A stretch of DNA of 64,000 bases from IMG/VR virus record IMGVR_UViG_2687453424_000001; one strand, given 5' to 3'. A program made the position numbers and the translations under genes. The stretch is from a virus (lineage: Duplodnaviria; Heunggongvirae; Uroviricota; Caudoviricetes). This document shows, in pieces, positions 11,401 through 55,463 of this stretch (the stretch's first letter is position 1; each line of letters begins with the position of its first letter). The notes beneath the pieces are model-generated. The model was not told where the DNA came from. It worked only from the letters and a program-made list of their open reading frames with translations, and searched no databases.

Positions 11401-12042
11401 NNNNNNNNNNNNNNNNNNNNNNNNNNNNNNNNNNNNNNNNNNNNNNNNNNNNNNNNNNNNNNNNNNNNNNNNNNNNNNNNNNNNNNNNNNNNNNNNNNNN
11501 NNNNNNNNNNNNNNNNNNNNNNNNNNNNNNNNNNNNNNNNNNNNNNNNNNNNNNNNNNNNNNNNNNNNNNNNNNNNNNNNNNNNNNNNNNNNNNNNNNNN
11601 NNNNNNNNNNNNNNNNNNNNNNNNNNNNNNNNNNNNNNNNNNNNNNNNNNNNNNNNNNNNNNNNNNNNNNNNNNNNNNNNNNNNNNNNNNNNNNNNNNNN
11701 NNNNNNNNNNNNNNNNNNNNNNNNNNNNNNNNNNNNNNNNNNNNNNNNNNNNNNNNNNNNNNNNNNNNNNNNNNNNNNNNNNNNNNNNNNNNNNNNNNNN
11801 NNNNNNNNNNNNNNNNNNNNNNNNNNNNNNNNNNNNNNNNNNNNNNNNNNNNNNNNNNNNNNNNNNNNNNNNNNNNNNNNNNNNNNNNNNNNNNNNNNNN
11901 NNNNNNNNNNNNNNNNNNNNNNNNNNNNNNNNNNNNNNNNNNNNNNNNNNNNNNNNNNNNNNNNNNNNNNNNNNNNNNNNNNNNNNNNNNNNNNNNNNNN
12001 NNNNNNNNNNNNNNNNNNNNNNNNNNNNNNNNNNNNNNNNNN
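8463..12042. other. N-run, 3580 nt
   Basis: Uninterrupted n characters, flanked on both sides by the same repeat family. Confidence 1.
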
Positions 12043-12124
12043 CCTGCGAGGGGTCACAGCTCAGCCTGGGCAATGGAACAGGGCATCACGGCCACCGACG
12101 AGAAGTGAAGAGTGACCGACATTG

Positions 12125-12290
12125 GCACAGCAGAAAATCATGGAATCCCAGACAGGGCTGGACTGGAAGGGAACTTAAAGCTCCTCCAATCCACTGCCAT
12201 GGGTAGGGACATCTTCCACTAGAACAGTTTACTCCAACCTCTGTCCAACCTGGTCTTGAACACTGCCAGAGTTGGAAGTCACTGATTAAT
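12125..12290. mobile_element. Avian interspersed repeat fragment (LTR-like family common in bird genomes; classification uncertain)
   Basis: Motifs ggaagggaacttaaag...ccactgccatgggtagggacatcttccactag...ccaacctggtcttgaacactgcc match a repeat I recognise from many bird loci. A second copy lies at 28585-28680. Confidence 0.4.
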
Positions 12291-27718: not shown

Positions 27719-27929
27719 GCACTGCAAGTGGAAGCAGTGGTCAAATGGGAAAGGACTCTTAGTGGCTCTGGACTAAGCTAGAAAGAGCTGAGAACTTCCA
27801 ACTGTATCAATACTCTTCCCATTTTCAGTCATCCGTAGAATACTTTATACGCCAAAGGAAAAATGTCAGCAGTGTTATACTAGGAAATAAAGAACACAGA
27901 CAAAAGGATTTTTGATGAGAAAATGAACA

Positions 27930-28470
27930 TGAGCCAGCTGTGTGCAGTCGCTTGGGGTATTGTGTGCAGTTCTGGTGTCCTCAACATCAAAAGGACATGG
28001 AACTGTTGGAGCAAGTCCAGAGGAGGGCCACAAGGATGATCAGGGGACTGGAGCACCTCCCATATGAAGACAGGCTGAGGAAGTTGGGGCTGTTCAGCCT
28101 GGAGAAGAGAAGGCTGCGTGGAGACCTCATAGCAGCCTTCCAGTATCTAAAGGAGGCCTATTAATATGCTGGAGAGGGCCTCTTCACTAGGGACTGTAGT
28201 GATAGGACAAGGGGTAACATGCTCAAACATAAACAGAGGAAGTTGAGATTGGATATAAGGAAGAAGTTCTTGACTGTAAGGGTGGTGAGGCACTGGAAGA
28301 GGTTGCCCAGGGAAGTCGTGAATGCTCCATCCCTGGCAGTGTTCAAGGCCATTTTGGATAGAGCCTTGGGTGACATGGTTTAGTGGGAGGTGTCCCTGCC
28401 CATAGCAGGGGGGTTGGAACTAGATGGTCTTAAGGTCCTTTTCAACCCTAACTATTCTATGATTCTACAA
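27930..28470 (+). mobile_element. CR1 LINE 3'-end fragment (ORF2 C-terminus plus 3' tail)
   Basis: ORF 27940..28164 reads [51 protein letters not shown]; the downstream frame reads RVVRHWKRLPREVVNAPSLAVFKAILDRALGDMV, and the sequence ends with a ggttggaactagatggtcttaaggtcc tail. Near-canonical CR1. Confidence 0.8.
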
Positions 28471-28584
28471 TTCTAAGGCCATGCCGAGCCTCTCTTGTGC
28501 AGCCCAGACTCATCCGAGTCAGAAGTACAAATAGTGAACTTTACAATCAAGTTGGAATTTATCTGCTATCCCTTGTGATTATCA

Positions 28585-28680
28585 GAGCTGGACAAAGCAC
28601 TGCTTCAGAGCAAACCTGACTCCCATCCAACCTGGCCTTGAACACTGCGAAGGATGGGGCAGCCACAGCTTCTCTGCTGG
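28585..28680. mobile_element. Avian interspersed repeat fragment (same family as 12125-12290)
   Basis: ccatccaacctggccttgaacactgcgaaggatggggcagccacagcttctctg. Confidence 0.4.
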
Positions 28681-28757
28681 TTAGGGTTCTCTGCTGGGTT
28701 AGGGTTAGGGTTAGGGTTTTAGGGGGTTAGGGCGTTAGGGGGTTAGGGCGTTAGGGT
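28681..28757 (+). repeat. Short degenerate (TTAGGG)n tract abutting vector sequence
   Basis: ttagggtt...gttagggttagggttagggttttagggggttagggcgttagggggttagggcgttagggt, immediately followed by lambda cos-fragment sequence. Confidence 0.8.
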
Positions 28758-29106
28758 AAAAAGCTCGCTTTCAGCACCTGTCGTTTCCTTTCTTTTCAGA
28801 GGGTATTTTAAATAAAAACATTAAGTTATGACGAAGAAGAACGGAAACGCCTTAAACCGGAAAATTTTCATAAATAGCGAAAACCCGCGAGGTCGCCGCC
28901 CCGTAACCTGTCGGATCACCGGAAAGGACCCGTAAAGTGATAATGATTATCATCTACATATCACAACGTGCGTGGAGGCCATCAAACCACGTCAAATAAT
29001 CAATTATGACGCAGGTATCGTATTAATTGATCTGCATCAACTTAACGTAAAAACAACTTCAGACAATACAAATCAGCGACACTGAATACGGGGCAACCTC
29101 ATGTCC
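28758..29106. other. cos: Bacteriophage lambda cos fragment of a cosmid/BAC vector (joined left and right lambda ends; cosN at ~28890-28901), followed by a SacI-NruI-SacI-SalI linker at 29107-29126
   Basis: Reverse complement of the lambda left end (GGGCGGCGACCTCGCGGGTTTTCGCTATTTATGAAAATTTTCCGG...GCTGAAAGCGAGCTTTTT) joined to the lambda right end (...CCGACAGGTTACG). The right-arm part ends ...ACGGGGCAACCTCATGTCC and is followed by gagctcgcgagctcgtcgac, as in F-based BAC/fosmid vectors. Confidence 0.85.
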
Positions 29107-29349
29107 GAGCTCGCGAGCTCGTCGACAGCGACACACTTGCATCGGATGCAGCCCGGTTAACGTGCCGGCACGGCCTGGGTAACCAGGTATTTTGTCCACA
29201 TAACCGTGCGCAAAATGTTGTGGATAAGCAGGACACAGCAGCAATCCACAGCAGGCATACAACCGCACACCGAGGTTACTCCGTTCTACAGGTTACGACG
29301 ACATGTCAATACTTGCCCTTGACAGGCATTGATGGAATCGTAGTCTCAC

Positions 29350-29435
29350 GCTGATAGTCTGATCGACAATACAAGTGGGACCGTGGTCCCAGACCGATAA
29401 TCAGACCGACAACACGAGTGGGATCGTGGTCCCAG
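29350..29435. repeat. sopC: sopC (parC) centromere-like 43-bp repeats, part before the N-run
   Basis: Units containing the inverted repeat tgggaccgtggtccca spaced by ~43 bp, the F-plasmid partition site. Confidence 0.8.
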
Positions 29436-32400
29436 NNNNNNNNNNNNNNNNNNNNNNNNNNNNNNNNNNNNNNNNNNNNNNNNNNNNNNNNNNNNNNNNN
29501 NNNNNNNNNNNNNNNNNNNNNNNNNNNNNNNNNNNNNNNNNNNNNNNNNNNNNNNNNNNNNNNNNNNNNNNNNNNNNNNNNNNNNNNNNNNNNNNNNNNN
29601 NNNNNNNNNNNNNNNNNNNNNNNNNNNNNNNNNNNNNNNNNNNNNNNNNNNNNNNNNNNNNNNNNNNNNNNNNNNNNNNNNNNNNNNNNNNNNNNNNNNN
29701 NNNNNNNNNNNNNNNNNNNNNNNNNNNNNNNNNNNNNNNNNNNNNNNNNNNNNNNNNNNNNNNNNNNNNNNNNNNNNNNNNNNNNNNNNNNNNNNNNNNN
29801 NNNNNNNNNNNNNNNNNNNNNNNNNNNNNNNNNNNNNNNNNNNNNNNNNNNNNNNNNNNNNNNNNNNNNNNNNNNNNNNNNNNNNNNNNNNNNNNNNNNN
29901 NNNNNNNNNNNNNNNNNNNNNNNNNNNNNNNNNNNNNNNNNNNNNNNNNNNNNNNNNNNNNNNNNNNNNNNNNNNNNNNNNNNNNNNNNNNNNNNNNNNN
30001 NNNNNNNNNNNNNNNNNNNNNNNNNNNNNNNNNNNNNNNNNNNNNNNNNNNNNNNNNNNNNNNNNNNNNNNNNNNNNNNNNNNNNNNNNNNNNNNNNNNN
30101 NNNNNNNNNNNNNNNNNNNNNNNNNNNNNNNNNNNNNNNNNNNNNNNNNNNNNNNNNNNNNNNNNNNNNNNNNNNNNNNNNNNNNNNNNNNNNNNNNNNN
30201 NNNNNNNNNNNNNNNNNNNNNNNNNNNNNNNNNNNNNNNNNNNNNNNNNNNNNNNNNNNNNNNNNNNNNNNNNNNNNNNNNNNNNNNNNNNNNNNNNNNN
30301 NNNNNNNNNNNNNNNNNNNNNNNNNNNNNNNNNNNNNNNNNNNNNNNNNNNNNNNNNNNNNNNNNNNNNNNNNNNNNNNNNNNNNNNNNNNNNNNNNNNN
30401 NNNNNNNNNNNNNNNNNNNNNNNNNNNNNNNNNNNNNNNNNNNNNNNNNNNNNNNNNNNNNNNNNNNNNNNNNNNNNNNNNNNNNNNNNNNNNNNNNNNN
30501 NNNNNNNNNNNNNNNNNNNNNNNNNNNNNNNNNNNNNNNNNNNNNNNNNNNNNNNNNNNNNNNNNNNNNNNNNNNNNNNNNNNNNNNNNNNNNNNNNNNN
30601 NNNNNNNNNNNNNNNNNNNNNNNNNNNNNNNNNNNNNNNNNNNNNNNNNNNNNNNNNNNNNNNNNNNNNNNNNNNNNNNNNNNNNNNNNNNNNNNNNNNN
30701 NNNNNNNNNNNNNNNNNNNNNNNNNNNNNNNNNNNNNNNNNNNNNNNNNNNNNNNNNNNNNNNNNNNNNNNNNNNNNNNNNNNNNNNNNNNNNNNNNNNN
30801 NNNNNNNNNNNNNNNNNNNNNNNNNNNNNNNNNNNNNNNNNNNNNNNNNNNNNNNNNNNNNNNNNNNNNNNNNNNNNNNNNNNNNNNNNNNNNNNNNNNN
30901 NNNNNNNNNNNNNNNNNNNNNNNNNNNNNNNNNNNNNNNNNNNNNNNNNNNNNNNNNNNNNNNNNNNNNNNNNNNNNNNNNNNNNNNNNNNNNNNNNNNN
31001 NNNNNNNNNNNNNNNNNNNNNNNNNNNNNNNNNNNNNNNNNNNNNNNNNNNNNNNNNNNNNNNNNNNNNNNNNNNNNNNNNNNNNNNNNNNNNNNNNNNN
31101 NNNNNNNNNNNNNNNNNNNNNNNNNNNNNNNNNNNNNNNNNNNNNNNNNNNNNNNNNNNNNNNNNNNNNNNNNNNNNNNNNNNNNNNNNNNNNNNNNNNN
31201 NNNNNNNNNNNNNNNNNNNNNNNNNNNNNNNNNNNNNNNNNNNNNNNNNNNNNNNNNNNNNNNNNNNNNNNNNNNNNNNNNNNNNNNNNNNNNNNNNNNN
31301 NNNNNNNNNNNNNNNNNNNNNNNNNNNNNNNNNNNNNNNNNNNNNNNNNNNNNNNNNNNNNNNNNNNNNNNNNNNNNNNNNNNNNNNNNNNNNNNNNNNN
31401 NNNNNNNNNNNNNNNNNNNNNNNNNNNNNNNNNNNNNNNNNNNNNNNNNNNNNNNNNNNNNNNNNNNNNNNNNNNNNNNNNNNNNNNNNNNNNNNNNNNN
31501 NNNNNNNNNNNNNNNNNNNNNNNNNNNNNNNNNNNNNNNNNNNNNNNNNNNNNNNNNNNNNNNNNNNNNNNNNNNNNNNNNNNNNNNNNNNNNNNNNNNN
31601 NNNNNNNNNNNNNNNNNNNNNNNNNNNNNNNNNNNNNNNNNNNNNNNNNNNNNNNNNNNNNNNNNNNNNNNNNNNNNNNNNNNNNNNNNNNNNNNNNNNN
31701 NNNNNNNNNNNNNNNNNNNNNNNNNNNNNNNNNNNNNNNNNNNNNNNNNNNNNNNNNNNNNNNNNNNNNNNNNNNNNNNNNNNNNNNNNNNNNNNNNNNN
31801 NNNNNNNNNNNNNNNNNNNNNNNNNNNNNNNNNNNNNNNNNNNNNNNNNNNNNNNNNNNNNNNNNNNNNNNNNNNNNNNNNNNNNNNNNNNNNNNNNNNN
31901 NNNNNNNNNNNNNNNNNNNNNNNNNNNNNNNNNNNNNNNNNNNNNNNNNNNNNNNNNNNNNNNNNNNNNNNNNNNNNNNNNNNNNNNNNNNNNNNNNNNN
32001 NNNNNNNNNNNNNNNNNNNNNNNNNNNNNNNNNNNNNNNNNNNNNNNNNNNNNNNNNNNNNNNNNNNNNNNNNNNNNNNNNNNNNNNNNNNNNNNNNNNN
32101 NNNNNNNNNNNNNNNNNNNNNNNNNNNNNNNNNNNNNNNNNNNNNNNNNNNNNNNNNNNNNNNNNNNNNNNNNNNNNNNNNNNNNNNNNNNNNNNNNNNN
32201 NNNNNNNNNNNNNNNNNNNNNNNNNNNNNNNNNNNNNNNNNNNNNNNNNNNNNNNNNNNNNNNNNNNNNNNNNNNNNNNNNNNNNNNNNNNNNNNNNNNN
32301 NNNNNNNNNNNNNNNNNNNNNNNNNNNNNNNNNNNNNNNNNNNNNNNNNNNNNNNNNNNNNNNNNNNNNNNNNNNNNNNNNNNNNNNNNNNNNNNNNNNN

Positions 32401-33845
32401 NNNNNNNNNNNNNNNNNNNNNNNNNNNNNNNNNNNNNNNNNNNNNNNNNNNNNNNNNNNNNNNNNNNNNNNNNNNNNNNNNNNNNNNNNNNNNNNNNNNN
32501 NNNNNNNNNNNNNNNNNNNNNNNNNNNNNNNNNNNNNNNNNNNNNNNNNNNNNNNNNNNNNNNNNNNNNNNNNNNNNNNNNNNNNNNNNNNNNNNNNNNN
32601 NNNNNNNNNNNNNNNNNNNNNNNNNNNNNNNNNNNNNNNNNNNNNNNNNNNNNNNNNNNNNNNNNNNNNNNNNNNNNNNNNNNNNNNNNNNNNNNNNNNN
32701 NNNNNNNNNNNNNNNNNNNNNNNNNNNNNNNNNNNNNNNNNNNNNNNNNNNNNNNNNNNNNNNNNNNNNNNNNNNNNNNNNNNNNNNNNNNNNNNNNNNN
32801 NNNNNNNNNNNNNNNNNNNNNNNNNNNNNNNNNNNNNNNNNNNNNNNNNNNNNNNNNNNNNNNNNNNNNNNNNNNNNNNNNNNNNNNNNNNNNNNNNNNN
32901 NNNNNNNNNNNNNNNNNNNNNNNNNNNNNNNNNNNNNNNNNNNNNNNNNNNNNNNNNNNNNNNNNNNNNNNNNNNNNNNNNNNNNNNNNNNNNNNNNNNN
33001 NNNNNNNNNNNNNNNNNNNNNNNNNNNNNNNNNNNNNNNNNNNNNNNNNNNNNNNNNNNNNNNNNNNNNNNNNNNNNNNNNNNNNNNNNNNNNNNNNNNN
33101 NNNNNNNNNNNNNNNNNNNNNNNNNNNNNNNNNNNNNNNNNNNNNNNNNNNNNNNNNNNNNNNNNNNNNNNNNNNNNNNNNNNNNNNNNNNNNNNNNNNN
33201 NNNNNNNNNNNNNNNNNNNNNNNNNNNNNNNNNNNNNNNNNNNNNNNNNNNNNNNNNNNNNNNNNNNNNNNNNNNNNNNNNNNNNNNNNNNNNNNNNNNN
33301 NNNNNNNNNNNNNNNNNNNNNNNNNNNNNNNNNNNNNNNNNNNNNNNNNNNNNNNNNNNNNNNNNNNNNNNNNNNNNNNNNNNNNNNNNNNNNNNNNNNN
33401 NNNNNNNNNNNNNNNNNNNNNNNNNNNNNNNNNNNNNNNNNNNNNNNNNNNNNNNNNNNNNNNNNNNNNNNNNNNNNNNNNNNNNNNNNNNNNNNNNNNN
33501 NNNNNNNNNNNNNNNNNNNNNNNNNNNNNNNNNNNNNNNNNNNNNNNNNNNNNNNNNNNNNNNNNNNNNNNNNNNNNNNNNNNNNNNNNNNNNNNNNNNN
33601 NNNNNNNNNNNNNNNNNNNNNNNNNNNNNNNNNNNNNNNNNNNNNNNNNNNNNNNNNNNNNNNNNNNNNNNNNNNNNNNNNNNNNNNNNNNNNNNNNNNN
33701 NNNNNNNNNNNNNNNNNNNNNNNNNNNNNNNNNNNNNNNNNNNNNNNNNNNNNNNNNNNNNNNNNNNNNNNNNNNNNNNNNNNNNNNNNNNNNNNNNNNN
33801 NNNNNNNNNNNNNNNNNNNNNNNNNNNNNNNNNNNNNNNNNNNNN
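29436..33845. other. N-run, 4410 nt, lying inside the sopC repeat array
   Basis: Uninterrupted n characters with sopC repeats on both flanks. Confidence 1.
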
Positions 33846-34020
33846 TCTGATTATCAGACCGACGATACGAGTGGGACCGTGGTCCCAGACTAATAATCAG
33901 ACCGACGATACGAGTGGGACCGTGGTCCCAGACTAATAATCAGACCGACGATACGAGTGGGACCGTGGTCCCAGTCTGATTATCAGACCGACGATACAAG
34001 TGGAACAGTGGGCCCAGAGA
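33846..34020. repeat. sopC: sopC (parC) 43-bp repeats, part after the N-run
   Basis: Three to four units of cagaccgacgatacgagtgggaccgtggtcccagactaataat. Confidence 0.85.
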
Positions 34021-34105
34021 GAATATTCAGGCCAGTTATGCTTTCTGGCCTGTAACAAAGGACATTAAGTAAAGACAGATAAACGTAGACTAAAACGTGG
34101 TCGCA

Positions 34106-35077
34106 TCAGGGTGCTGGCTTTTCAAGTTCCTTAAGAATGGCCTCAATTTTCTCTATACACTCAGTTGGAACACGAGACCTGTCCAGGTTAAGCACCATTT
34201 TATCGCCCTTATACAATACTGTCGCTCCAGGAGCAAACTGATGTCGTGAGCTTAAACTAGTTCTTGATGCAGATGACGTTTTAAGCACAGAAGTTAAAAG
34301 AGTGATAACTTCTTCAGCTTCAAATATCACCCCAGCTTTTTTCTGCTCATGAAGGTTAGATGCCTGCTGCTTAAGTAATTCCTCTTTATCTGTAAAGGCT
34401 TTTTGAAGTGCATCACCTGACCGGGCAGATAGTTCACCGGGGTGAGAAAAAAGAGCAACAACTGATTTAGGCAATTTGGCGGTGTTGATACAGCGGGTAA
34501 TAATCTTACGTGAAATATTTTCCGCATCAGCCAGCGCAGAAATATTTCCAGCAAATTCATTCTGCAATCGGCTTGCATAACGCTGACCACGTTCATAAGC
34601 ACTTGTTGGGCGATAATCGTTACCCAATCTGGATAATGCAGCCATCTGCTCATCATCCAGCTCGCCAACCAGAACACGATAATCACTTTCGGTAAGTGCA
34701 GCAGCTTTACGACGGCGACTCCCATCGGCAATTTCTATGACACCAGATACTCTTCGACCGAACGCCGGTGTCTGTTGACCAGTCAGTAGAAAAGAAGGGA
34801 TGAGATCATCCAGTGCGTCCTCAGTAAGCAGCTCCTGGTCACGTTCATTACCTGACCATACCCGAGAGGTCTTCTCAACACTATCACCCCGGAGCACTTC
34901 AAGAGTAAACTTCACATCCCGACCACATACAGGCAAAGTAATGGCATTACCGCGAGCCATTACTCCTACGCGCGCAATTAACGAATCCACCATCGGGGCA
35001 GCTGGTGTCGATAACGAAGTATCTTCAACCGGTTGAGTATTGAGCGTATGTTTTGGAATAACAGGCGCACGCTTCAT
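34106..35077 (-). CDS. sopB: F-plasmid partition protein SopB (ParB), 323 aa
   Basis: Full-length ORF whose translation I recognise as F SopB ([22 protein letters not shown]...). The start overlaps the sopA stop by 1 nt (taATG), as in F. Confidence 0.95.
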
Positions 35078-36252
35078 TATCTAATCTCCCAGCGTGGTTT
35101 AATCAGACGATCGAAAATTTCATTGCAGACAGGTTCCCAAATAGAAAGAGCATTTCTCCAGGCACCAGTTGAAGAGCGTTGATCAATGGCCTGTTCAAAA
35201 ACAGTTCTCATCCGGATCTGACCTTTACCAACTTCATCCGTTTCACGTACAACATTTTTTAGAACCATGCTTCCCCAGGCATCCCGAATTTGCTCCTCCA
35301 TCCACGGGGACTGAGAGCCATTACTATTGCTGTATTTGGTAAGCAAAATACGTACATCAGGCTCGAACCCTTTAAGATCAACGTTCTTGAGCAGATCACG
35401 AAGCATATCGAAAAACTGCAGTGCGGAGGTGTAGTCAAACAACTCAGCAGGCGTGGGAACAATCAGCACATCAGCAGCACATACGACATTAATCGTGCCG
35501 ATACCCAGGTTAGGCGCGCTGTCAATAACTATGACATCATAGTCATGAGCAACAGTTTCAATGGCCAGTCGGAGCATCAGGTGTGGATCGGTGGGCAGTT
35601 TACCTTCATCAAATTTGCCCATTAACTCAGTTTCAATACGGTGCAGAGCCAGACAGGAAGGAATAATGTCAAGCCCCGGCCAGCAAGTGGGCTTTATTGC
35701 ATAAGTGACATCGTCCTTTTCCCCAAGATAGAAAGGCAGGAGAGTGTCTTCTGCATGAATATGAAGATCTGGTACCCATCCGTGATACATTGAGGCTGTT
35801 CCCTGGGGGTCGTTACCTTCCACGAGCAAAACACGTAGCCCCTTCAGAGCCAGATCCTGAGCAAGATGAACAGAAACTGAGGTTTTGTAAACGCCACCTT
35901 TATGGGCAGCAACCCCGATCACCGGTGGAAATACGTCTTCAGCACGTCGCAATCGCGTACCAAACACATCACGCATATGATTAATTTGTTCAATTGTATA
36001 ACCAACACGTTGCTCAACCCGTCCTCGAATTTCCATATCCGGGTGCGGTAGTCGCCCTGCTTTCTCGGCATCTCTGATAGCCTGAGAAGAAACCCCAACT
36101 AAATCCGCTGCTTCACCTATTCTCCAGCGCCGGGTTATTTTCCTCGCTTCCGGGCTGTCATCATTAAACTGTGCAATGGCGATAGCCTTCGTCATTTCAT
36201 GACCAGCGTTTATGCACTGGTTAAGTGTTTCCATGAGTTTCATTCTGAACAT
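35077..36252 (-). CDS. sopA: F-plasmid partition ATPase SopA (ParA), 391-aa ORF
   Basis: Translation matches F SopA, including the deviant Walker A motif ([19 protein letters not shown]). The annotated start may be the internal Met 3 codons downstream (MKLMETLNQ). Confidence 0.95.
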
Positions 36253-36559
36253 CCTTTAATCATTGCTTTGCGTTTTTTTATTAAATCTTGCAATTTACTG
36301 CAAAGCAACAACAAAATCGCAAAGTCATCAAAAAACCGCAAAGTTGTTTAAAATAAGAGCAACACTACAAAAGGAGATAAGAAGAGCACATACCTCAGTC
36401 ACTTATTATCACTAGCGCTCGCCGCAGCCGTGTAACCGAGCATAGCGAGCGAACTGGCGAGGAAGCAAAGAAGAACTGTTCTGTCAGATAGCTCTTACGC
36501 TCAGCGCAAGAAGAAATATCCACCGTGGGAAAAACTCCAGGTAGAGGTACACACGCGGA

Positions 36560-36830
36560 TAGCCAATTCAGAGTAATAAACTGTGATAATCAACCCTCAT
36601 CAATGATGACGAACTAACCCCCGATATCAGGTCACATGACGAAGGGAAAGAGAAGGAAATCAACTGTGACAAACTGCCCTCAAATTTGGCTTCCTTAAAA
36701 ATTACAGTTCAAAAAGTATGAGAAAATCCATGCAGGCTGAAGGAAACAGCAAAACTGTGACAAATTACCCTCAGTAGGTCAGAACAAATGTGACGAACCA
36801 CCCTCAAATCTGTGACAGATAACCCTCAGA
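36560..36830. promoter_or_regulatory. incC: incC iteron region of the F replicon (RepE-binding direct repeats)
   Basis: Repeated tgtgaca(a/g)a(c/t)(t/c)(g/a)ccctca(a/g) elements between sopA and repE (e.g. tgtgacaaactgccctcaaat, tgtgacaaattaccctcag, tgtgacgaaccaccctcaaat, tgtgacagataaccctcag). Confidence 0.75.
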
Positions 36831-37900
<1,070 letters not shown>

Positions 37901-38359
37901 GTTTTTTCAGGCATCGTGTGTAAGCAGAATATATAAGTGCTGTTCCCTGGTGCTTCCTCGCTCACTCGAGGGCTTCGCCCTGTCGCTCGACTGCGGCGAG
38001 CACTACTGGCTGTAAAAGGACAGACCACATCATGGTTCTGTGTTCATTAGGTTGTTCTGTCCATTGCTGACATAATCCGCTCCACTTCAACGTAACACCG
38101 CACGAAGATTTCTATTGTTCCTGAAGGCATATTCAAATCGTTTTCGTTACCGCTTGCAGGCATCATGACAGAACACTACTTCCTATAAACGCTACACAGG
38201 CTCCTGAGATTAATAATGCGGATCTCTACGATAATGGGAGATTTTCCCGACTGTTTCGTTCGCTTCTCAGTGGATAACAGCCAGCTTCTCTGTTTAACAG
38301 ACAAAAACAGCATATCCACTCAGTTCCACATTTCCATATAAAGGCCAAGGCATTTATTC

Positions 38360-38810
38360 TCAGGATAATTGTTTCAGCATCGCAACCGCATCAGACTCCG
38401 GCATCGCAAACTGCACCCGGTGCCGGGCAGCCACATCCAGCGCAAAAACCTTCGTGTAGACTTCCGTTGAACTGATGGACTTATGTCCCATCAGGCTTTG
38501 CAGAACTTTCAGCGGTATACCGGCATACAGCATGTGCATCGCATAGGAATGGCGGAACGTATGTGGTGTGACCGGAACAGAGAACGTCACACCGTCAGCA
38601 GCAGCGGCGGCAACCGCCTCCCCAATCCAGGTCCTGACCGTTCTGTCCGTCACTTCCCAGATCCGCGCTTTCTCTGTCCTTCCTGTGCGACGGTTACGCC
38701 GCTCCATGAGCTTATCGCGAATAAATACCTGTGACGGAAGATCACTTCGCAGAATAAATAAATCCTGGTGTCCCTGTTGATACCGGGAAGCCCTGGGCCA
38801 ACTTTTGGCG
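38360..38810 (-). CDS. resD: Tyrosine site-specific recombinase ResD (labelled redF in BAC vector maps), C-terminal ~150 aa only; N-terminus lost in N-run
   Basis: Visible translation ...VTPHTFRHSYAMHMLYAGIPLKVLQSLMGHKSISSTEVYTKVF... carries tyrosine-recombinase box II (HxxR) and the catalytic Tyr context; its position beside ori2 fits the F/BAC backbone. Confidence 0.8.
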
Positions 38811-41800
38811 NNNNNNNNNNNNNNNNNNNNNNNNNNNNNNNNNNNNNNNNNNNNNNNNNNNNNNNNNNNNNNNNNNNNNNNNNNNNNNNNNNNNNNNNNN
38901 NNNNNNNNNNNNNNNNNNNNNNNNNNNNNNNNNNNNNNNNNNNNNNNNNNNNNNNNNNNNNNNNNNNNNNNNNNNNNNNNNNNNNNNNNNNNNNNNNNNN
39001 NNNNNNNNNNNNNNNNNNNNNNNNNNNNNNNNNNNNNNNNNNNNNNNNNNNNNNNNNNNNNNNNNNNNNNNNNNNNNNNNNNNNNNNNNNNNNNNNNNNN
39101 NNNNNNNNNNNNNNNNNNNNNNNNNNNNNNNNNNNNNNNNNNNNNNNNNNNNNNNNNNNNNNNNNNNNNNNNNNNNNNNNNNNNNNNNNNNNNNNNNNNN
39201 NNNNNNNNNNNNNNNNNNNNNNNNNNNNNNNNNNNNNNNNNNNNNNNNNNNNNNNNNNNNNNNNNNNNNNNNNNNNNNNNNNNNNNNNNNNNNNNNNNNN
39301 NNNNNNNNNNNNNNNNNNNNNNNNNNNNNNNNNNNNNNNNNNNNNNNNNNNNNNNNNNNNNNNNNNNNNNNNNNNNNNNNNNNNNNNNNNNNNNNNNNNN
39401 NNNNNNNNNNNNNNNNNNNNNNNNNNNNNNNNNNNNNNNNNNNNNNNNNNNNNNNNNNNNNNNNNNNNNNNNNNNNNNNNNNNNNNNNNNNNNNNNNNNN
39501 NNNNNNNNNNNNNNNNNNNNNNNNNNNNNNNNNNNNNNNNNNNNNNNNNNNNNNNNNNNNNNNNNNNNNNNNNNNNNNNNNNNNNNNNNNNNNNNNNNNN
39601 NNNNNNNNNNNNNNNNNNNNNNNNNNNNNNNNNNNNNNNNNNNNNNNNNNNNNNNNNNNNNNNNNNNNNNNNNNNNNNNNNNNNNNNNNNNNNNNNNNNN
39701 NNNNNNNNNNNNNNNNNNNNNNNNNNNNNNNNNNNNNNNNNNNNNNNNNNNNNNNNNNNNNNNNNNNNNNNNNNNNNNNNNNNNNNNNNNNNNNNNNNNN
39801 NNNNNNNNNNNNNNNNNNNNNNNNNNNNNNNNNNNNNNNNNNNNNNNNNNNNNNNNNNNNNNNNNNNNNNNNNNNNNNNNNNNNNNNNNNNNNNNNNNNN
39901 NNNNNNNNNNNNNNNNNNNNNNNNNNNNNNNNNNNNNNNNNNNNNNNNNNNNNNNNNNNNNNNNNNNNNNNNNNNNNNNNNNNNNNNNNNNNNNNNNNNN
40001 NNNNNNNNNNNNNNNNNNNNNNNNNNNNNNNNNNNNNNNNNNNNNNNNNNNNNNNNNNNNNNNNNNNNNNNNNNNNNNNNNNNNNNNNNNNNNNNNNNNN
40101 NNNNNNNNNNNNNNNNNNNNNNNNNNNNNNNNNNNNNNNNNNNNNNNNNNNNNNNNNNNNNNNNNNNNNNNNNNNNNNNNNNNNNNNNNNNNNNNNNNNN
40201 NNNNNNNNNNNNNNNNNNNNNNNNNNNNNNNNNNNNNNNNNNNNNNNNNNNNNNNNNNNNNNNNNNNNNNNNNNNNNNNNNNNNNNNNNNNNNNNNNNNN
40301 NNNNNNNNNNNNNNNNNNNNNNNNNNNNNNNNNNNNNNNNNNNNNNNNNNNNNNNNNNNNNNNNNNNNNNNNNNNNNNNNNNNNNNNNNNNNNNNNNNNN
40401 NNNNNNNNNNNNNNNNNNNNNNNNNNNNNNNNNNNNNNNNNNNNNNNNNNNNNNNNNNNNNNNNNNNNNNNNNNNNNNNNNNNNNNNNNNNNNNNNNNNN
40501 NNNNNNNNNNNNNNNNNNNNNNNNNNNNNNNNNNNNNNNNNNNNNNNNNNNNNNNNNNNNNNNNNNNNNNNNNNNNNNNNNNNNNNNNNNNNNNNNNNNN
40601 NNNNNNNNNNNNNNNNNNNNNNNNNNNNNNNNNNNNNNNNNNNNNNNNNNNNNNNNNNNNNNNNNNNNNNNNNNNNNNNNNNNNNNNNNNNNNNNNNNNN
40701 NNNNNNNNNNNNNNNNNNNNNNNNNNNNNNNNNNNNNNNNNNNNNNNNNNNNNNNNNNNNNNNNNNNNNNNNNNNNNNNNNNNNNNNNNNNNNNNNNNNN
40801 NNNNNNNNNNNNNNNNNNNNNNNNNNNNNNNNNNNNNNNNNNNNNNNNNNNNNNNNNNNNNNNNNNNNNNNNNNNNNNNNNNNNNNNNNNNNNNNNNNNN
40901 NNNNNNNNNNNNNNNNNNNNNNNNNNNNNNNNNNNNNNNNNNNNNNNNNNNNNNNNNNNNNNNNNNNNNNNNNNNNNNNNNNNNNNNNNNNNNNNNNNNN
41001 NNNNNNNNNNNNNNNNNNNNNNNNNNNNNNNNNNNNNNNNNNNNNNNNNNNNNNNNNNNNNNNNNNNNNNNNNNNNNNNNNNNNNNNNNNNNNNNNNNNN
41101 NNNNNNNNNNNNNNNNNNNNNNNNNNNNNNNNNNNNNNNNNNNNNNNNNNNNNNNNNNNNNNNNNNNNNNNNNNNNNNNNNNNNNNNNNNNNNNNNNNNN
41201 NNNNNNNNNNNNNNNNNNNNNNNNNNNNNNNNNNNNNNNNNNNNNNNNNNNNNNNNNNNNNNNNNNNNNNNNNNNNNNNNNNNNNNNNNNNNNNNNNNNN
41301 NNNNNNNNNNNNNNNNNNNNNNNNNNNNNNNNNNNNNNNNNNNNNNNNNNNNNNNNNNNNNNNNNNNNNNNNNNNNNNNNNNNNNNNNNNNNNNNNNNNN
41401 NNNNNNNNNNNNNNNNNNNNNNNNNNNNNNNNNNNNNNNNNNNNNNNNNNNNNNNNNNNNNNNNNNNNNNNNNNNNNNNNNNNNNNNNNNNNNNNNNNNN
41501 NNNNNNNNNNNNNNNNNNNNNNNNNNNNNNNNNNNNNNNNNNNNNNNNNNNNNNNNNNNNNNNNNNNNNNNNNNNNNNNNNNNNNNNNNNNNNNNNNNNN
41601 NNNNNNNNNNNNNNNNNNNNNNNNNNNNNNNNNNNNNNNNNNNNNNNNNNNNNNNNNNNNNNNNNNNNNNNNNNNNNNNNNNNNNNNNNNNNNNNNNNNN
41701 NNNNNNNNNNNNNNNNNNNNNNNNNNNNNNNNNNNNNNNNNNNNNNNNNNNNNNNNNNNNNNNNNNNNNNNNNNNNNNNNNNNNNNNNNNNNNNNNNNNN

Positions 41801-43161
41801 NNNNNNNNNNNNNNNNNNNNNNNNNNNNNNNNNNNNNNNNNNNNNNNNNNNNNNNNNNNNNNNNNNNNNNNNNNNNNNNNNNNNNNNNNNNNNNNNNNNN
41901 NNNNNNNNNNNNNNNNNNNNNNNNNNNNNNNNNNNNNNNNNNNNNNNNNNNNNNNNNNNNNNNNNNNNNNNNNNNNNNNNNNNNNNNNNNNNNNNNNNNN
42001 NNNNNNNNNNNNNNNNNNNNNNNNNNNNNNNNNNNNNNNNNNNNNNNNNNNNNNNNNNNNNNNNNNNNNNNNNNNNNNNNNNNNNNNNNNNNNNNNNNNN
42101 NNNNNNNNNNNNNNNNNNNNNNNNNNNNNNNNNNNNNNNNNNNNNNNNNNNNNNNNNNNNNNNNNNNNNNNNNNNNNNNNNNNNNNNNNNNNNNNNNNNN
42201 NNNNNNNNNNNNNNNNNNNNNNNNNNNNNNNNNNNNNNNNNNNNNNNNNNNNNNNNNNNNNNNNNNNNNNNNNNNNNNNNNNNNNNNNNNNNNNNNNNNN
42301 NNNNNNNNNNNNNNNNNNNNNNNNNNNNNNNNNNNNNNNNNNNNNNNNNNNNNNNNNNNNNNNNNNNNNNNNNNNNNNNNNNNNNNNNNNNNNNNNNNNN
42401 NNNNNNNNNNNNNNNNNNNNNNNNNNNNNNNNNNNNNNNNNNNNNNNNNNNNNNNNNNNNNNNNNNNNNNNNNNNNNNNNNNNNNNNNNNNNNNNNNNNN
42501 NNNNNNNNNNNNNNNNNNNNNNNNNNNNNNNNNNNNNNNNNNNNNNNNNNNNNNNNNNNNNNNNNNNNNNNNNNNNNNNNNNNNNNNNNNNNNNNNNNNN
42601 NNNNNNNNNNNNNNNNNNNNNNNNNNNNNNNNNNNNNNNNNNNNNNNNNNNNNNNNNNNNNNNNNNNNNNNNNNNNNNNNNNNNNNNNNNNNNNNNNNNN
42701 NNNNNNNNNNNNNNNNNNNNNNNNNNNNNNNNNNNNNNNNNNNNNNNNNNNNNNNNNNNNNNNNNNNNNNNNNNNNNNNNNNNNNNNNNNNNNNNNNNNN
42801 NNNNNNNNNNNNNNNNNNNNNNNNNNNNNNNNNNNNNNNNNNNNNNNNNNNNNNNNNNNNNNNNNNNNNNNNNNNNNNNNNNNNNNNNNNNNNNNNNNNN
42901 NNNNNNNNNNNNNNNNNNNNNNNNNNNNNNNNNNNNNNNNNNNNNNNNNNNNNNNNNNNNNNNNNNNNNNNNNNNNNNNNNNNNNNNNNNNNNNNNNNNN
43001 NNNNNNNNNNNNNNNNNNNNNNNNNNNNNNNNNNNNNNNNNNNNNNNNNNNNNNNNNNNNNNNNNNNNNNNNNNNNNNNNNNNNNNNNNNNNNNNNNNNN
43101 NNNNNNNNNNNNNNNNNNNNNNNNNNNNNNNNNNNNNNNNNNNNNNNNNNNNNNNNNNNNN
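38811..43161. other. N-run, 4351 nt, between the resD 5' part and the cat promoter
   Basis: Uninterrupted n characters. Confidence 1.
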
Positions 43162-43275
43162 AAATGAGACGTTGATCGGCACGTAAGAGGTTCCAACTTT
43201 CACCATAATGAAATAAGATCACTACCGGGCGTATTTTTTGAGTTATCGAGATTTTCAGGAGCTAAGGAAGCTAAA
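43162..43275 (+). promoter_or_regulatory. Tn9 cat promoter and RBS region
   Basis: Sequence immediately upstream of cat (...ttttgagttatcgagattttcaggagctaaggaagctaaaATG) is the standard cat cassette leader. Confidence 0.8.
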
Positions 43276-43935
43276 ATGGAGAAAAAAATCACTGGATATA
43301 CCACCGTTGATATATCCCAATGGCATCGTAAAGAACATTTTGAGGCATTTCAGTCAGTTGCTCAATGTACCTATAACCAGACCGTTCAGCTGGATATTAC
43401 GGCCTTTTTAAAGACCGTAAAGAAAAATAAGCACAAGTTTTATCCGGCCTTTATTCACATTCTTGCCCGCCTGATGAATGCTCATCCGGAATTTCGTATG
43501 GCAATGAAAGACGGTGAGCTGGTGATATGGGATAGTGTTCACCCTTGTTACACCGTTTTCCATGAGCAAACTGAAACGTTTTCATCGCTCTGGAGTGAAT
43601 ACCACGACGATTTCCGGCAGTTTCTACACATATATTCGCAAGATGTGGCGTGTTACGGTGAAAACCTGGCCTATTTCCCTAAAGGGTTTATTGAGAATAT
43701 GTTTTTCGTCTCAGCCAATCCCTGGGTGAGTTTCACCAGTTTTGATTTAAACGTGGCCAATATGGACAACTTCTTCGCCCCCGTTTTCACCATGGGCAAA
43801 TATTATACGCAAGGCGACAAGGTGCTGATGCCGCTGGCGATTCAGGTTCATCATGCCGTTTGTGATGGCTTCCATGTCGGCAGAATGCTTAATGAATTAC
43901 AACAGTACTGCGATGAGTGGCAGGGCGGGGCGTAA
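43276..43935 (+). CDS. cat: Chloramphenicol acetyltransferase (Tn9 type I CAT), 219 aa
   Basis: Full-length [76 protein letters not shown]...[28 protein letters not shown]. Confidence 0.97.
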
Positions 43936-43947
43936 TTTTTTTAAGGC

Positions 43948-44202
43948 CATAGGCAAGGTGAGTTTACACGCGCCATTGTATATCGCGTTCCTACACGCCT
44001 GCCGGTTGGCGACATCAGCCGGCAACATGAGAATGGAAATGGCGGCGATGGAGAGCCCGAAAACGACGACGAATTTGGGGAAATACGCTTGGTTAGCGTC
44101 GTCCGGGTGCTGGTAATTGACGAGGAGGTAGACATTGAAGAGGAACACTAGGACGCATACGATTATGGCGACGATTACCAGAGCGAGGTTGAAATCGCCC
44201 AT
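43948..44202 (-). CDS. Plant LMBR1-like membrane protein, first coding exon, truncated by the vector junction
   Basis: Minus-strand translation from ATG at 44202..44200 reads MGDFNLALVIVAIIVCVLVFLFNVYLLVNYQHPDDANQAYFPKFVVVFGLSIAAISILMLPADVANRQACRNAIYNGACKLTLPM, which I recall as the conserved N-terminus of plant LMBR1-like proteins. Similarity stops where cat-downstream vector sequence begins (~43946). Confidence 0.6.
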
Positions 44203-45378
44203 CGTTAAAAGCCCTCGACTCGATTCGAATCGAATCGATAGCGGTAGATTCAACAGGAGATTTGAGAAATTAGGGTTTGCTTTTAACCCTTCGAATTTTA
44301 ATTCGAAGAATTTCGTAGATCTGAGCTTTCCTCTGTGTGTGTGTGTTTTTTTGAAAGGGAAAGGGGGGAGGTTGGGCTCCGGTGAGGTGGTTTGTTGAAT
44401 TTTGGGGTTAATTTTGACGTGTTGGAATTAAATGACGTTATTATCCTTGTGAATTGGTTAAATGACGGGTTGAAAATAGCGAGGAAGAGAGTTGCAGATG
44501 GGGTTGAATGTAACATCACCTTATATTCCCGTGACAAGCATCGAACCAGCCTGTCCAAGGCAAGAAGTTGTTTTTTAAAAAAAAAATTTACATGTAAGAA
44601 ATAACGCTATTTGAACTTTTAGACCGCTTTCTTTATCTTTTATTCCCGTAGAGAAATTCTCTCAATTTTGTTCTTTTTTTTTCCTCAAATCTTTTATTGT
44701 TCTTAATTATACCCTTCAATTGATATAAAAAAATAATTAGTAATTCTTTTTAGGTACGTAAGATTGAGATACTATTATGAATGAAAATTCTAGCTCAAGC
44801 TCCTCACATTTTATTAACGAACTCTTAAATTTTAATTTAAAACTAAACAAGTTTTTAATTTTAACAAAGATTTAACTGTCATTAGATTCGATGTTAATTG
44901 ACTTTTTTACTCACATGATATATTACTTGACGAATTAACATGATAATGTGATTGTTGACGTGGCTAAAAAAATATAATGAGTTTGGTCACATTAGTTGCG
45001 CGTGACCTCACCAATTCACTAAATCATATATCATGTGGACAGGAAAAATAATTAATATTGACTCTAATATTGATTAAATTTTTATTAAAATTAAAAGCTT
45101 GTTCGATTTTAAATCAAAATTTAAGAGTTTGTTTGAATGCAATAATTAAATAAATGATGATAGTACGTAAAATGTTTTTAGGATTGAAGCCATAATTTTA
45201 AGACAATATAAGCAACAAGTGTCTTATTTACTCATGTTCTCACCTAAAGACTTTTTTATGTTGTTACTTAGTGCATGTTTGGTTTAACTTTTTTTCAGTT
45301 TATCTATTTATTGAAAGTAAAAGTTAGGCCAAATATAATATTTTGAAAAACTCTTAAAAAAAAGTAACTTTTTTTAAG

Positions 45379-48300
45379 NNNNNNNNNNNNNNNNNNNNNN
45401 NNNNNNNNNNNNNNNNNNNNNNNNNNNNNNNNNNNNNNNNNNNNNNNNNNNNNNNNNNNNNNNNNNNNNNNNNNNNNNNNNNNNNNNNNNNNNNNNNNNN
45501 NNNNNNNNNNNNNNNNNNNNNNNNNNNNNNNNNNNNNNNNNNNNNNNNNNNNNNNNNNNNNNNNNNNNNNNNNNNNNNNNNNNNNNNNNNNNNNNNNNNN
45601 NNNNNNNNNNNNNNNNNNNNNNNNNNNNNNNNNNNNNNNNNNNNNNNNNNNNNNNNNNNNNNNNNNNNNNNNNNNNNNNNNNNNNNNNNNNNNNNNNNNN
45701 NNNNNNNNNNNNNNNNNNNNNNNNNNNNNNNNNNNNNNNNNNNNNNNNNNNNNNNNNNNNNNNNNNNNNNNNNNNNNNNNNNNNNNNNNNNNNNNNNNNN
45801 NNNNNNNNNNNNNNNNNNNNNNNNNNNNNNNNNNNNNNNNNNNNNNNNNNNNNNNNNNNNNNNNNNNNNNNNNNNNNNNNNNNNNNNNNNNNNNNNNNNN
45901 NNNNNNNNNNNNNNNNNNNNNNNNNNNNNNNNNNNNNNNNNNNNNNNNNNNNNNNNNNNNNNNNNNNNNNNNNNNNNNNNNNNNNNNNNNNNNNNNNNNN
46001 NNNNNNNNNNNNNNNNNNNNNNNNNNNNNNNNNNNNNNNNNNNNNNNNNNNNNNNNNNNNNNNNNNNNNNNNNNNNNNNNNNNNNNNNNNNNNNNNNNNN
46101 NNNNNNNNNNNNNNNNNNNNNNNNNNNNNNNNNNNNNNNNNNNNNNNNNNNNNNNNNNNNNNNNNNNNNNNNNNNNNNNNNNNNNNNNNNNNNNNNNNNN
46201 NNNNNNNNNNNNNNNNNNNNNNNNNNNNNNNNNNNNNNNNNNNNNNNNNNNNNNNNNNNNNNNNNNNNNNNNNNNNNNNNNNNNNNNNNNNNNNNNNNNN
46301 NNNNNNNNNNNNNNNNNNNNNNNNNNNNNNNNNNNNNNNNNNNNNNNNNNNNNNNNNNNNNNNNNNNNNNNNNNNNNNNNNNNNNNNNNNNNNNNNNNNN
46401 NNNNNNNNNNNNNNNNNNNNNNNNNNNNNNNNNNNNNNNNNNNNNNNNNNNNNNNNNNNNNNNNNNNNNNNNNNNNNNNNNNNNNNNNNNNNNNNNNNNN
46501 NNNNNNNNNNNNNNNNNNNNNNNNNNNNNNNNNNNNNNNNNNNNNNNNNNNNNNNNNNNNNNNNNNNNNNNNNNNNNNNNNNNNNNNNNNNNNNNNNNNN
46601 NNNNNNNNNNNNNNNNNNNNNNNNNNNNNNNNNNNNNNNNNNNNNNNNNNNNNNNNNNNNNNNNNNNNNNNNNNNNNNNNNNNNNNNNNNNNNNNNNNNN
46701 NNNNNNNNNNNNNNNNNNNNNNNNNNNNNNNNNNNNNNNNNNNNNNNNNNNNNNNNNNNNNNNNNNNNNNNNNNNNNNNNNNNNNNNNNNNNNNNNNNNN
46801 NNNNNNNNNNNNNNNNNNNNNNNNNNNNNNNNNNNNNNNNNNNNNNNNNNNNNNNNNNNNNNNNNNNNNNNNNNNNNNNNNNNNNNNNNNNNNNNNNNNN
46901 NNNNNNNNNNNNNNNNNNNNNNNNNNNNNNNNNNNNNNNNNNNNNNNNNNNNNNNNNNNNNNNNNNNNNNNNNNNNNNNNNNNNNNNNNNNNNNNNNNNN
47001 NNNNNNNNNNNNNNNNNNNNNNNNNNNNNNNNNNNNNNNNNNNNNNNNNNNNNNNNNNNNNNNNNNNNNNNNNNNNNNNNNNNNNNNNNNNNNNNNNNNN
47101 NNNNNNNNNNNNNNNNNNNNNNNNNNNNNNNNNNNNNNNNNNNNNNNNNNNNNNNNNNNNNNNNNNNNNNNNNNNNNNNNNNNNNNNNNNNNNNNNNNNN
47201 NNNNNNNNNNNNNNNNNNNNNNNNNNNNNNNNNNNNNNNNNNNNNNNNNNNNNNNNNNNNNNNNNNNNNNNNNNNNNNNNNNNNNNNNNNNNNNNNNNNN
47301 NNNNNNNNNNNNNNNNNNNNNNNNNNNNNNNNNNNNNNNNNNNNNNNNNNNNNNNNNNNNNNNNNNNNNNNNNNNNNNNNNNNNNNNNNNNNNNNNNNNN
47401 NNNNNNNNNNNNNNNNNNNNNNNNNNNNNNNNNNNNNNNNNNNNNNNNNNNNNNNNNNNNNNNNNNNNNNNNNNNNNNNNNNNNNNNNNNNNNNNNNNNN
47501 NNNNNNNNNNNNNNNNNNNNNNNNNNNNNNNNNNNNNNNNNNNNNNNNNNNNNNNNNNNNNNNNNNNNNNNNNNNNNNNNNNNNNNNNNNNNNNNNNNNN
47601 NNNNNNNNNNNNNNNNNNNNNNNNNNNNNNNNNNNNNNNNNNNNNNNNNNNNNNNNNNNNNNNNNNNNNNNNNNNNNNNNNNNNNNNNNNNNNNNNNNNN
47701 NNNNNNNNNNNNNNNNNNNNNNNNNNNNNNNNNNNNNNNNNNNNNNNNNNNNNNNNNNNNNNNNNNNNNNNNNNNNNNNNNNNNNNNNNNNNNNNNNNNN
47801 NNNNNNNNNNNNNNNNNNNNNNNNNNNNNNNNNNNNNNNNNNNNNNNNNNNNNNNNNNNNNNNNNNNNNNNNNNNNNNNNNNNNNNNNNNNNNNNNNNNN
47901 NNNNNNNNNNNNNNNNNNNNNNNNNNNNNNNNNNNNNNNNNNNNNNNNNNNNNNNNNNNNNNNNNNNNNNNNNNNNNNNNNNNNNNNNNNNNNNNNNNNN
48001 NNNNNNNNNNNNNNNNNNNNNNNNNNNNNNNNNNNNNNNNNNNNNNNNNNNNNNNNNNNNNNNNNNNNNNNNNNNNNNNNNNNNNNNNNNNNNNNNNNNN
48101 NNNNNNNNNNNNNNNNNNNNNNNNNNNNNNNNNNNNNNNNNNNNNNNNNNNNNNNNNNNNNNNNNNNNNNNNNNNNNNNNNNNNNNNNNNNNNNNNNNNN
48201 NNNNNNNNNNNNNNNNNNNNNNNNNNNNNNNNNNNNNNNNNNNNNNNNNNNNNNNNNNNNNNNNNNNNNNNNNNNNNNNNNNNNNNNNNNNNNNNNNNNN

Positions 48301-55200: not shown

Positions 55201-55463
55201 CATGTGGATCTAGGTAACTACTTTGCATCCTCACCTTTTTTACACGAAAGGTTGCTTTGGAAATAGTCTAGCTTCATTCTTAACCCTGCTCCCAATTTAC
55301 AACAGCAGGCTGTTCATCACCCTTAATGGTTCCCAGAACTTGAAATTTGCTCCTATCTGATGTTGTGCTGTAACTGATCTTTTGCAGAATCGCAGAGGCT
55401 GCTGGAACTTGCCCCATTTGCCGTCGGAACATGAAGAAAGTGAGGAAGATTTTCACAGTATAA
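52235..55463 (+). CDS. Plant APD-like transmembrane RING-type (C3HC4) E3 ubiquitin ligase gene, predicted 10 exons, ~488 aa
   Basis: Manual gene model: exons 52235..52568, 52680..52786, 52896..53021 (GC donor), 53111..53204, 53342..53416, 53494..53576, 54315..54461, 54701..54773, 54862..55213, 55388..55463, total 1467 nt in frame. Acceptors are AG and donors GT apart from one GCAAGT. The C-terminus carries RING motif [41 protein letters not shown] split by the last intron; hydrophobic segments and a Ser/Ala-rich N-terminus are present. Individual splice boundaries are less certain than the gene call. Confidence 0.7.

Follow-up and report, generated by a model that had tools for sequence, protein, structure and literature searches.

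A telomere-type tract joined to BAC vector cos DNA is very probably a non-biological chimera in a contaminated bird scaffold

The window, i.e., the whole 64,000-nt stretch of DNA that was analysed, contains a point at which a degenerate telomere-type tract of bird origin runs directly into the lambda cos fragment of a bacterial artificial chromosome (BAC) vector. This junction is a feature of neither the bird genome nor any standard vector, and we consider it very likely to be a non-biological chimera within a contaminated scaffold. The conclusion follows from the combination of one vector arc that lacks its cloning cassette, two blunt joins that connect this arc to DNA of two kingdoms, cacao DNA of the genotype used for BAC libraries, and gaps that are mis-sized.

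Results

The junction between the telomere-type tract and lambda cos DNA

The junction reads ...ggttagggcgttagggt/aaaaagctcgctttcagc..., and by direct reading the break lies at 28757/28758, with the bird telomere-type tract on one side and, according to the alignments, nucleotide (nt) 144 of the lambda left end on the other. Megablast against phage records identified lambda-type cos DNA at 100% identity over 28758-29105, starting exactly at 28758. The longer stretch 28758-29435 matched two PLSDB records, CP036489.1 (hereafter L001) at 100% and NZ_CP104070.1 (hereafter L002) at 99.9%. These two records were used as the vector references; they are listed as plasmids and are in truth BAC or fosmid clones. 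In a three-way alignment of the window with L001 and L002 all columns were identical from 28758 onwards, and there was no similarity upstream. An earlier note, made from the sequence alone, had described a telomere-type tract abutting lambda cos at 28757/28758; direct reading, megablast and the three-way alignment all confirm this, and the alignment to the two BAC-clone records gives the exact breakpoint.

In L001 and L002 the bases before the break, i.e., ahead of the shared start aaaaagctc, are ...ggaaacgacagaggcc, also given as ...cggacaaaaacagagaaaggaaacgacagaggcc, and SacI, loxP and NotI lie upstream of this point. The break corresponds to lambda 144/145 in the vector's copy and to 145/146 in NC_001416 numbering. 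At nt 138-139 NC_001416 reads GAGGCTTTTT, while BAC vectors, the window and several lambda-like phage records read GAGCTTTTT; the vector copy is thus without one G at 138/139 and its cos coordinates are shifted by one relative to NC_001416. The distance of about 130 nt from cosN given in the earlier note was therefore slightly short; counted from the lambda left end, 144 nt of the vector copy precede the break. The vector layout described in the note was right, since in both BAC-clone references the lambda fragment continues for 54 nt past the break, normally to nt 199, and is followed by loxP, NotI, lacZ-alpha and the cloning site. With the reference lambda fragment extending beyond the break towards loxP and the polylinker, the proposal that the break lies away from any cloning site holds.

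The junction is blunt: the alignment left zero shared bases between the two sides and no microhomology. It falls within the 25 nt that separate two inverted-repeat arms of cosB, each a perfect 16-nt copy (window 28778-28793; L001 8980-8995), which we take to be R2 and R1 of lambda cosB, and only the cosN-proximal arm is kept in the window. Over its final 357 nt the bird flank is free of AAGCTT, GGATCC, GAATTC and GATC.

Searches for the same join elsewhere were negative. The 23-nt junction had no exact match in metagenome, genome and viral contig collections, no match among the 72,556 plasmid records of PLSDB ended at the breakpoint, and a literature search returned no paper combining pBeloBAC11, TTAGGG and cos. 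The earlier note had named, as a refutation of its reading, a vector in which TTAGGG adjoins this part of cos; none was found, although this is weak evidence as the collections are not vector databases.

The retained vector backbone

Downstream of the break the vector can be followed through three contigs (28758-29435, 33846-38810 and 43162-43947), which amount to 6,650 bp of retained backbone once true distances are restored. The first begins with nt 1-144 of the vector's copy of the lambda left end (28758-28901, minus strand; megablast, alignment to NC_001416 and direct reading), in which the 12-nt cohesive-end sequence at 28890-28901 shows cos in its joined form. The lambda right-end part of the cos fragment, approximately the last 204 nt, follows on the minus strand at 28902-29105 (megablast, 100%), and then the SacI linker, F-plasmid DNA and the first 43-nt repeats of sopC at 29106-29435 on the plus strand (PLSDB match, BLAST and TRF). 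The contig ending at 29435 stops inside the sopC repeat array.

The second contig (33846-38810, plus strand; BLAST onto L001 and the L001 annotation) carries the backbone from the rest of sopC to the resolvase. According to the L001 annotation sopB lies at 34106-35077, sopA at 35077-36243, repE at 36831-37586 and the resolvase gene at 38360-38707, all on the minus strand. The third holds the cat cassette (43162-43947, plus strand; BLAST), including an intact open reading frame for chloramphenicol acetyltransferase at 43276-43935 on the plus strand.

BLAST placed window 28758-29435 (cos to the first sopC repeats) on L001 9001-9678, 33846-37969 (rest of sopC, sopB, sopA and repE) on 9894-14017, 37965-38810 (the ori2/resolvase region) on 14634-15479, and 43162-43947 (cat) on 15481-16266, the last at 100% identity. 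The segments 29106-29435 and 33846-38810 are collinear with the annotated L001/L002 backbone at 99.95-100% identity. Within one contig the window cleanly skips 616 nt of L001 (14018-14633), a segment which we take to be the oriV insert of pCC1-type vectors. The lack of oriV assigns the backbone in the window to the pBeloBAC11/pIndigoBAC type. Two substitutions in the 4,124-bp sopC-repE segment set it apart from L001, and the aligned parts are otherwise 100% identical. These substitutions, at 34098 in or near the end of sopB and at 35323 in sopA, are possible markers of vector lineage.

The two reference records are themselves of note. CP036489.1 is deposited as 'Rahnella aquatilis plasmid pMEM40-2' and NZ_CP104070.1 as 'Alicyclobacillus fastidiosus plasmid unnamed3', and each contains the full backbone of a pCC1-type BAC or fosmid, with a T7 promoter, polylinker, NotI, loxP, cos, sopABC, repE and cat together with the 616-nt putative oriV segment. 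Their inserts start at the cloning site, that of L001 being plant-like in appearance, and both look like clones in a cloning vector that entered the database as natural plasmids.

The missing cassette and the second vector end

Vector identity ends for a second time at 43947, 11-12 nt past the cat stop codon, where the window reads ...gcgtaatttttttaaggc/cataggcaagg.... The reference continues beyond the end of cat for approximately 370 nt, via NotI, the lac promoter and SP6, to a HindIII site. In the window the alignments instead place the cat 3' end directly against Theobroma cacao DNA, namely exon 1 of an LMBR1-like gene, at 43947/43948, and this second junction is likewise blunt in the alignment, with zero shared bases and no microhomology. 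Both vector ends are therefore off the cloning site, and polylinker sequence is absent at both joins.

The arc that is missing between the two ends measures 867 nt, 497 nt on the T7 side and 370 nt on the SP6 side, and would contain two NotI sites, lacZ-alpha, the SP6 and T7 promoters, the polylinker, loxP and lambda 145-198. A short-word BLAST of the cassette arcs against the whole window returned nothing beyond 11-12-mers attributable to chance and one 16-nt arm of the cosB repeat (arc 477-492 against window 28793-28778). The retained arc ends 109 nt outside one NotI site and 115 nt outside the other, and this near-symmetry points to a process centred on the cassette, not to random shearing.

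The bird flank and its telomere-type tracts

To the left of the tract lie unique DNA and the 3' end of a CR1 element (approximately 27960-28450) in the flank 27719-28680 (plus strand; direct reading and TRF). The CR1 end carries a terminal 8-nt repeat at 28454-28475, reported by TRF as ATTCTACA x2.8. A CR1 3' end with such an octamer repeat is a hallmark of avian and reptile genomes. The open reading frame in the contig 20260-21511 is presumably a CR1-type reverse transcriptase, judged by its motif. Further upstream, at 1087-1428, there is an OR14-like receptor fragment whose named homologues are all avian, spread over many bird orders, the best being 72-79% identical. As a C-terminal OR14-type fragment without an upstream open reading frame, it is probably a pseudogene or truncated copy. 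The CR1 3' end with its octamer repeat and the OR14-like fragment identify the left flank as avian. A short tandem repeat is also present at the very start of the window (within 1-300).

The tract at the junction (28681-28757, plus strand; direct reading, motif count and TRF) is 77 nt long and degenerate. Its G-strand runs 5' to 3' towards the vector, and its last unit is truncated, ...TTAGGGT. The tract begins inside an 18-nt duplication, TTCTCTGCTGGGTTAGGG x2 (x2.1 in TRF), and TRF further reports (GGGTTA)3.8 at 28696-28718 and a 16-nt unit, GGGTTAGGGCGTTAGG, repeated 3.1 times at 28708-28756. Only 3.8 units of the 77 nt are perfect, the remainder being 8- and 16-nt variants, and the tract is continuous with the CR1 element and unique bird DNA. 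Exact-match scans of metagenome, genome and viral collections for the native bird sequence beyond the tract gave no match.

A second, longer degenerate TTAGGG array of 334 nt occupies 21685-22018 (plus strand; motif count and TRF). The motif TTAGGGTTAGGG, with at most one mismatch, occurs 32 times in the window against 0.19 expected, and 30 of these 12-mers fall within this array, oriented like the junction tract. As the array gives way to non-telomeric DNA, it reads as interstitial. A (GGTCAAA)4.6 microsatellite runs directly into the array (21653-22073), the variants TTAGGGG, TTACGG and TTTTAGGG occur within it, and after its abrupt stop the contig closes with 54 nt of AT-rich DNA. The stretch 21653-22073 could be an interstitial telomeric sequence or else a further chimeric join.

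One bird contig starts exactly with a HindIII site, AAGCTT, at 20260-20265, for which the chance is approximately 0.5% over 20 contig ends when HindIII alone is considered. This start suggests a clipped HindIII cloning junction, and with it BAC-derived bird data in the assembly. Turkey was considered as the bird; according to its genome paper, BAC-end sequences served solely for chromosome alignment, which speaks neither for nor against turkey.

The cacao flank

The right flank is AT-rich and opens with a minus-strand open reading frame typical of exon 1 of a plant LMBR1-like gene. DNA alignment identified the whole of 43948-64000 (plus strand), in three collinear contigs, as DNA of Theobroma cacao (Matina 1-6). 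Compared with GCA_000403535.1 (Matina 1-6), contigs 43948-45378, 49521-56742 and 60503-64000 are 99.7%, 99.9% and 100% identical, respectively, and all differences are in homopolymer lengths or at the edge of homopolymer runs. The genes in this flank are the LMBR1-like exon 1 (43948-44210, minus strand; open reading frame and DNA alignment), an APD-type RING gene (approximately 52.3-55.5 kb, plus strand; open reading frame and DNA alignment) and an intronless PDX1 (61171-62101, plus strand), whose open reading frame is identical to T. cacao EOY07201.1 in an exact-sequence look-up. Their order is that of the cacao chromosome record CM001883.1. In total the window holds at least 12 kb of sequenced cacao DNA, or approximately 20 kb including N runs.

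Native cacao DNA reads ...gagccagaGATCcttc/cataggcaagg... across the position of the second join, which lies within the exon, 7 nt from the nearest GATC (chance 3.4%). Neither AAGCTT nor GAATTC occurs in native DNA within 300 nt of it. A HindIII site at the join, suggested by a Met-Lys-Leu reading, was rejected, as homologues read MK[DQT]LW and the native DNA is without AAGCTT. Cotton was likewise rejected as the source of the plant flank: PDX1 is 97% identical to Gossypium cluster representatives, but the DNA of Gossypium loci is only 76-85% identical.

For Matina 1-6, BAC libraries were constructed in pIndigoBAC536 with HindIII, MboI and EcoRI (PMC3173454), and such libraries fit a backbone without oriV. 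The fusion of this vector end to Theobroma cacao DNA shows that the vector came from a BAC clone of a plant, foreign to the bird.

Layout of the scaffold and its gaps

The window consists of ten contigs of 0.5-7.2 kb, separated by N runs of either 20 or 3,580-5,645 nt, and the first junction sits in a contig of 1,717 nt (27719-29435). Four of the N runs could be tested against a reference and all four are inflated, by 3.7-4.35 kb. Vector alignment gives a true distance of 215 bp for the 4,410-nt run at 29436-33845 and of 1 bp for the 4,351-nt run at 38811-43161, and cacao alignment gives 53 bp for the 4,142-nt run at 45379-49520 and 24 bp for the 3,760-nt run at 56743-60502. At these gaps the contigs break off within the sopC repeats, within low-complexity A/T-rich sequence or, in one case, at a 1-nt hole. 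The pattern would be that of thinly covered DNA linked by read pairs whose real span was far below the nominal insert size. The five N runs of the bird part measure 5065, 3580, 5381, 20 and 5645 nt, and the four large ones are probably wrong-sized in like manner.

Discussion

Proposed origin of the junction

We propose that a pBeloBAC11/pIndigoBAC-type backbone entered the data with a Theobroma cacao (Matina 1-6) BAC clone that is foreign to the bird. The retained arc runs from lambda nt 144 through sopC, sopB, sopA, repE and ori2 to 11 nt past the cat stop, with unrelated DNA butt-joined at each edge, i.e., bird CR1 and interstitial or subtelomeric TTAGGG DNA at the cos edge and a cacao exon at the cat edge. 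Two routes to such a chimera may be considered.

The leading one is data processing, to which we assign about half of the total weight. Cassette-proximal vector sequence would have been clipped or masked, the masked bases dropped and the flanks abutted, and the backbone, being common to clones of different projects, would have let the scaffolder pass from a bird insert to a cacao insert. There are weak hints of this in the GATC 7 nt from the cacao join, given that one Matina library was cut with MboI, and in the AAGCTT at the start of a bird contig; each coincidence is weak individually, and both were found after several patterns had been examined. Standard vector clipping truncates reads and does not abut flanks, so this route requires an unusual step, e.g., the deletion of masked consensus bases. 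We also know of no vector-module boundary that matches the edges of the arc, which lie inside natural Tn9 and lambda sequence.

The other route, a molecule that was physically real but artificial, seems to us somewhat less than evenly likely. A clone could have been built on a vector that, once linearised at the cloning site, was chewed back by approximately 0.4-0.5 kb from each end, or library construction could have yielded a chimera by blunt co-ligation. A clone with a chewed-back vector would give white, chloramphenicol-resistant colonies.

Three further ways of producing the joins were considered and set aside. An overlap or de Bruijn (k-mer) mis-join through shared sequence is contradicted by the zero shared bases at both joins. 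Mate-pair circularisation junctions were rejected by coordinate reasoning, as the sides are not an insert length apart in the required order on the BAC map. The co-ligation of a single randomly sheared vector fragment is disfavoured, since the ends lie at such similar distances outside the NotI sites and the whole backbone is spanned.

Alternative explanations

A single rearranged bird BAC clone is the most viable of the alternatives, though we regard it as unlikely. Here a genuine bird insert with telomere-type repeats at its end would have undergone a deletion in E. coli of the T7-side polylinker, lacZ-alpha, loxP and 54 nt of cos, so that the join would exist physically in a single clone and the assembly error would be confined to the cacao side. 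Such a clone would keep cat, repE/ori2 and sopABC and would form white colonies, tandem repeats are unstable in E. coli, and the neighbouring bird contig that begins at a HindIII site suggests that bird BAC-derived data are present. However, the second vector end has lost its sequence as far as the cat stop too, and is joined to DNA of a different kingdom, so that two independent rare deletions would be required. Illegitimate recombination in E. coli is generally known to use a few shared bases, yet microhomology is absent, and the near-symmetry around the NotI cassette is left unexplained.

A purpose-built vector would make the join a true cloning or design junction, and we think this distinctly improbable. 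It could be a BAC designed to seed telomeres or truncate chromosomes, with (TTAGGG)n beside cos, or a backbone from which inverse PCR had left out the cassette and into which sheared DNA was cloned blunt. The clean backbone ends, approximately 110 nt outside the NotI sites, are where inverse-PCR primers might be placed, and both inserts are blunt-joined at arbitrary genomic positions, as in a random-shear library. For a seeding vector, however, the tract would have to be an engineered seed, i.e., a clean array, whereas it is degenerate, measures no more than 77 nt and runs on without a break from CR1 and unique bird DNA; in addition, there is no eukaryotic marker and no second telomere module. 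The absence of the junction from the PLSDB records, the three contig collections and the literature search also speaks against a designed vector, and the documented Matina 1-6 libraries were made by restriction cloning in standard pIndigoBAC536. A telomere-seeded vector is thus very unlikely, and the evidence favours the same reading as the earlier note, which had preferred a mis-join or a rearranged clone to a deliberately designed telomere vector.

Genuine integration of a cacao BAC or fragment next to telomeric repeats in the bird or a cell line, with end resection during non-homologous end joining (NHEJ), is given practically no weight, and its more specific form, in which the fragment integrated at or was capped next to the bird telomeric array and the blunt resected ends are NHEJ scars, fares if anything slightly worse. 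Blunt joins with approximately 0.4-0.5 kb lost per side resemble what is generally known of transgene integration junctions, and the TTAGGG strand is oriented as at a chromosome end. Yet no way is conceivable in which a cacao BAC clone could have entered a bird genome, the gaps are those of thinly covered, mis-sized vector and cacao data, and the cacao DNA matches the very reference genotype from which BAC libraries were made.

Implications for the bird assembly

The sequence presented as bird contains contamination of approximately 6.65 kb of BAC vector in addition to the cacao DNA. Since the vector and cacao DNA are joined inside contigs, simple end-trimming would not remove them; the bird assembly should be cleared of 28758-64000 together with the join at 28757/28758, and no reliance should be placed on the gap sizes. 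The inflated gaps would distort analyses of synteny, gene content, telomere-proximal structure and horizontal transfer, and scans for interstitial telomeres, plant-like bird genes and lambda or F-plasmid sequences would return false positives here. The value of the finding is practical, not biological, and the junction is not a real biological feature.

Comparison with known systems

The order of segments in the window is the same as in pBeloBAC11 and pIndigoBAC536, vectors with an F-factor mini-replicon, lambda cosN and P1 loxP. The cos fragment, SacI linker, start of sopC, ori2-to-resolvase region and cat are 100% identical to the L001 backbone, and the features of this vector family that are found in the window are sopC, sopB, sopA, repE and ori2 in order, a Tn9-type cat and the lack of oriV. 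In contrast, the family's cos fragment of approximately 400 bp comprises the lambda right end and the left end to nt ~199, whereas the window stops at nt 144; loxP and the NotI-flanked lacZ-alpha/polylinker with T7 and SP6 are absent from the window; and neither join shows the HindIII, BamHI or EcoRI site or half-site of a canonical BAC junction. The backbone in the window is a truncated copy, not a variant vector.

Vectors for telomere seeding and chromosome truncation resemble the window in having TTAGGG beside plasmid DNA, with the G-strand directed towards the end of the genomic segment. They carry near-perfect (TTAGGG)n of several hundred bp, unlike the short and degenerate tract of the window, which is set in native bird sequence. 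Avian interstitial and subtelomeric arrays resemble the window in that it has two degenerate TTAGGG arrays of the same orientation in adjacent contigs, near CR1 and an OR14-like pseudogene; unlike those arrays, the one at 28681-28757 is cut short by the vector, so that its native length and terminal status cannot be read from it.

As a whole, the structure falls into the familiar class of vector and cross-species contamination of draft assemblies, at which NCBI VecScreen and FCS are directed. It differs in that the vector, instead of lying at a scaffold end or in a contig of its own, is butt-joined inside contigs to both genomes, and in that the cassette is selectively absent. It shares with this class the vector together with DNA of another kingdom, short contigs, mis-sized gaps and chimeric joins.
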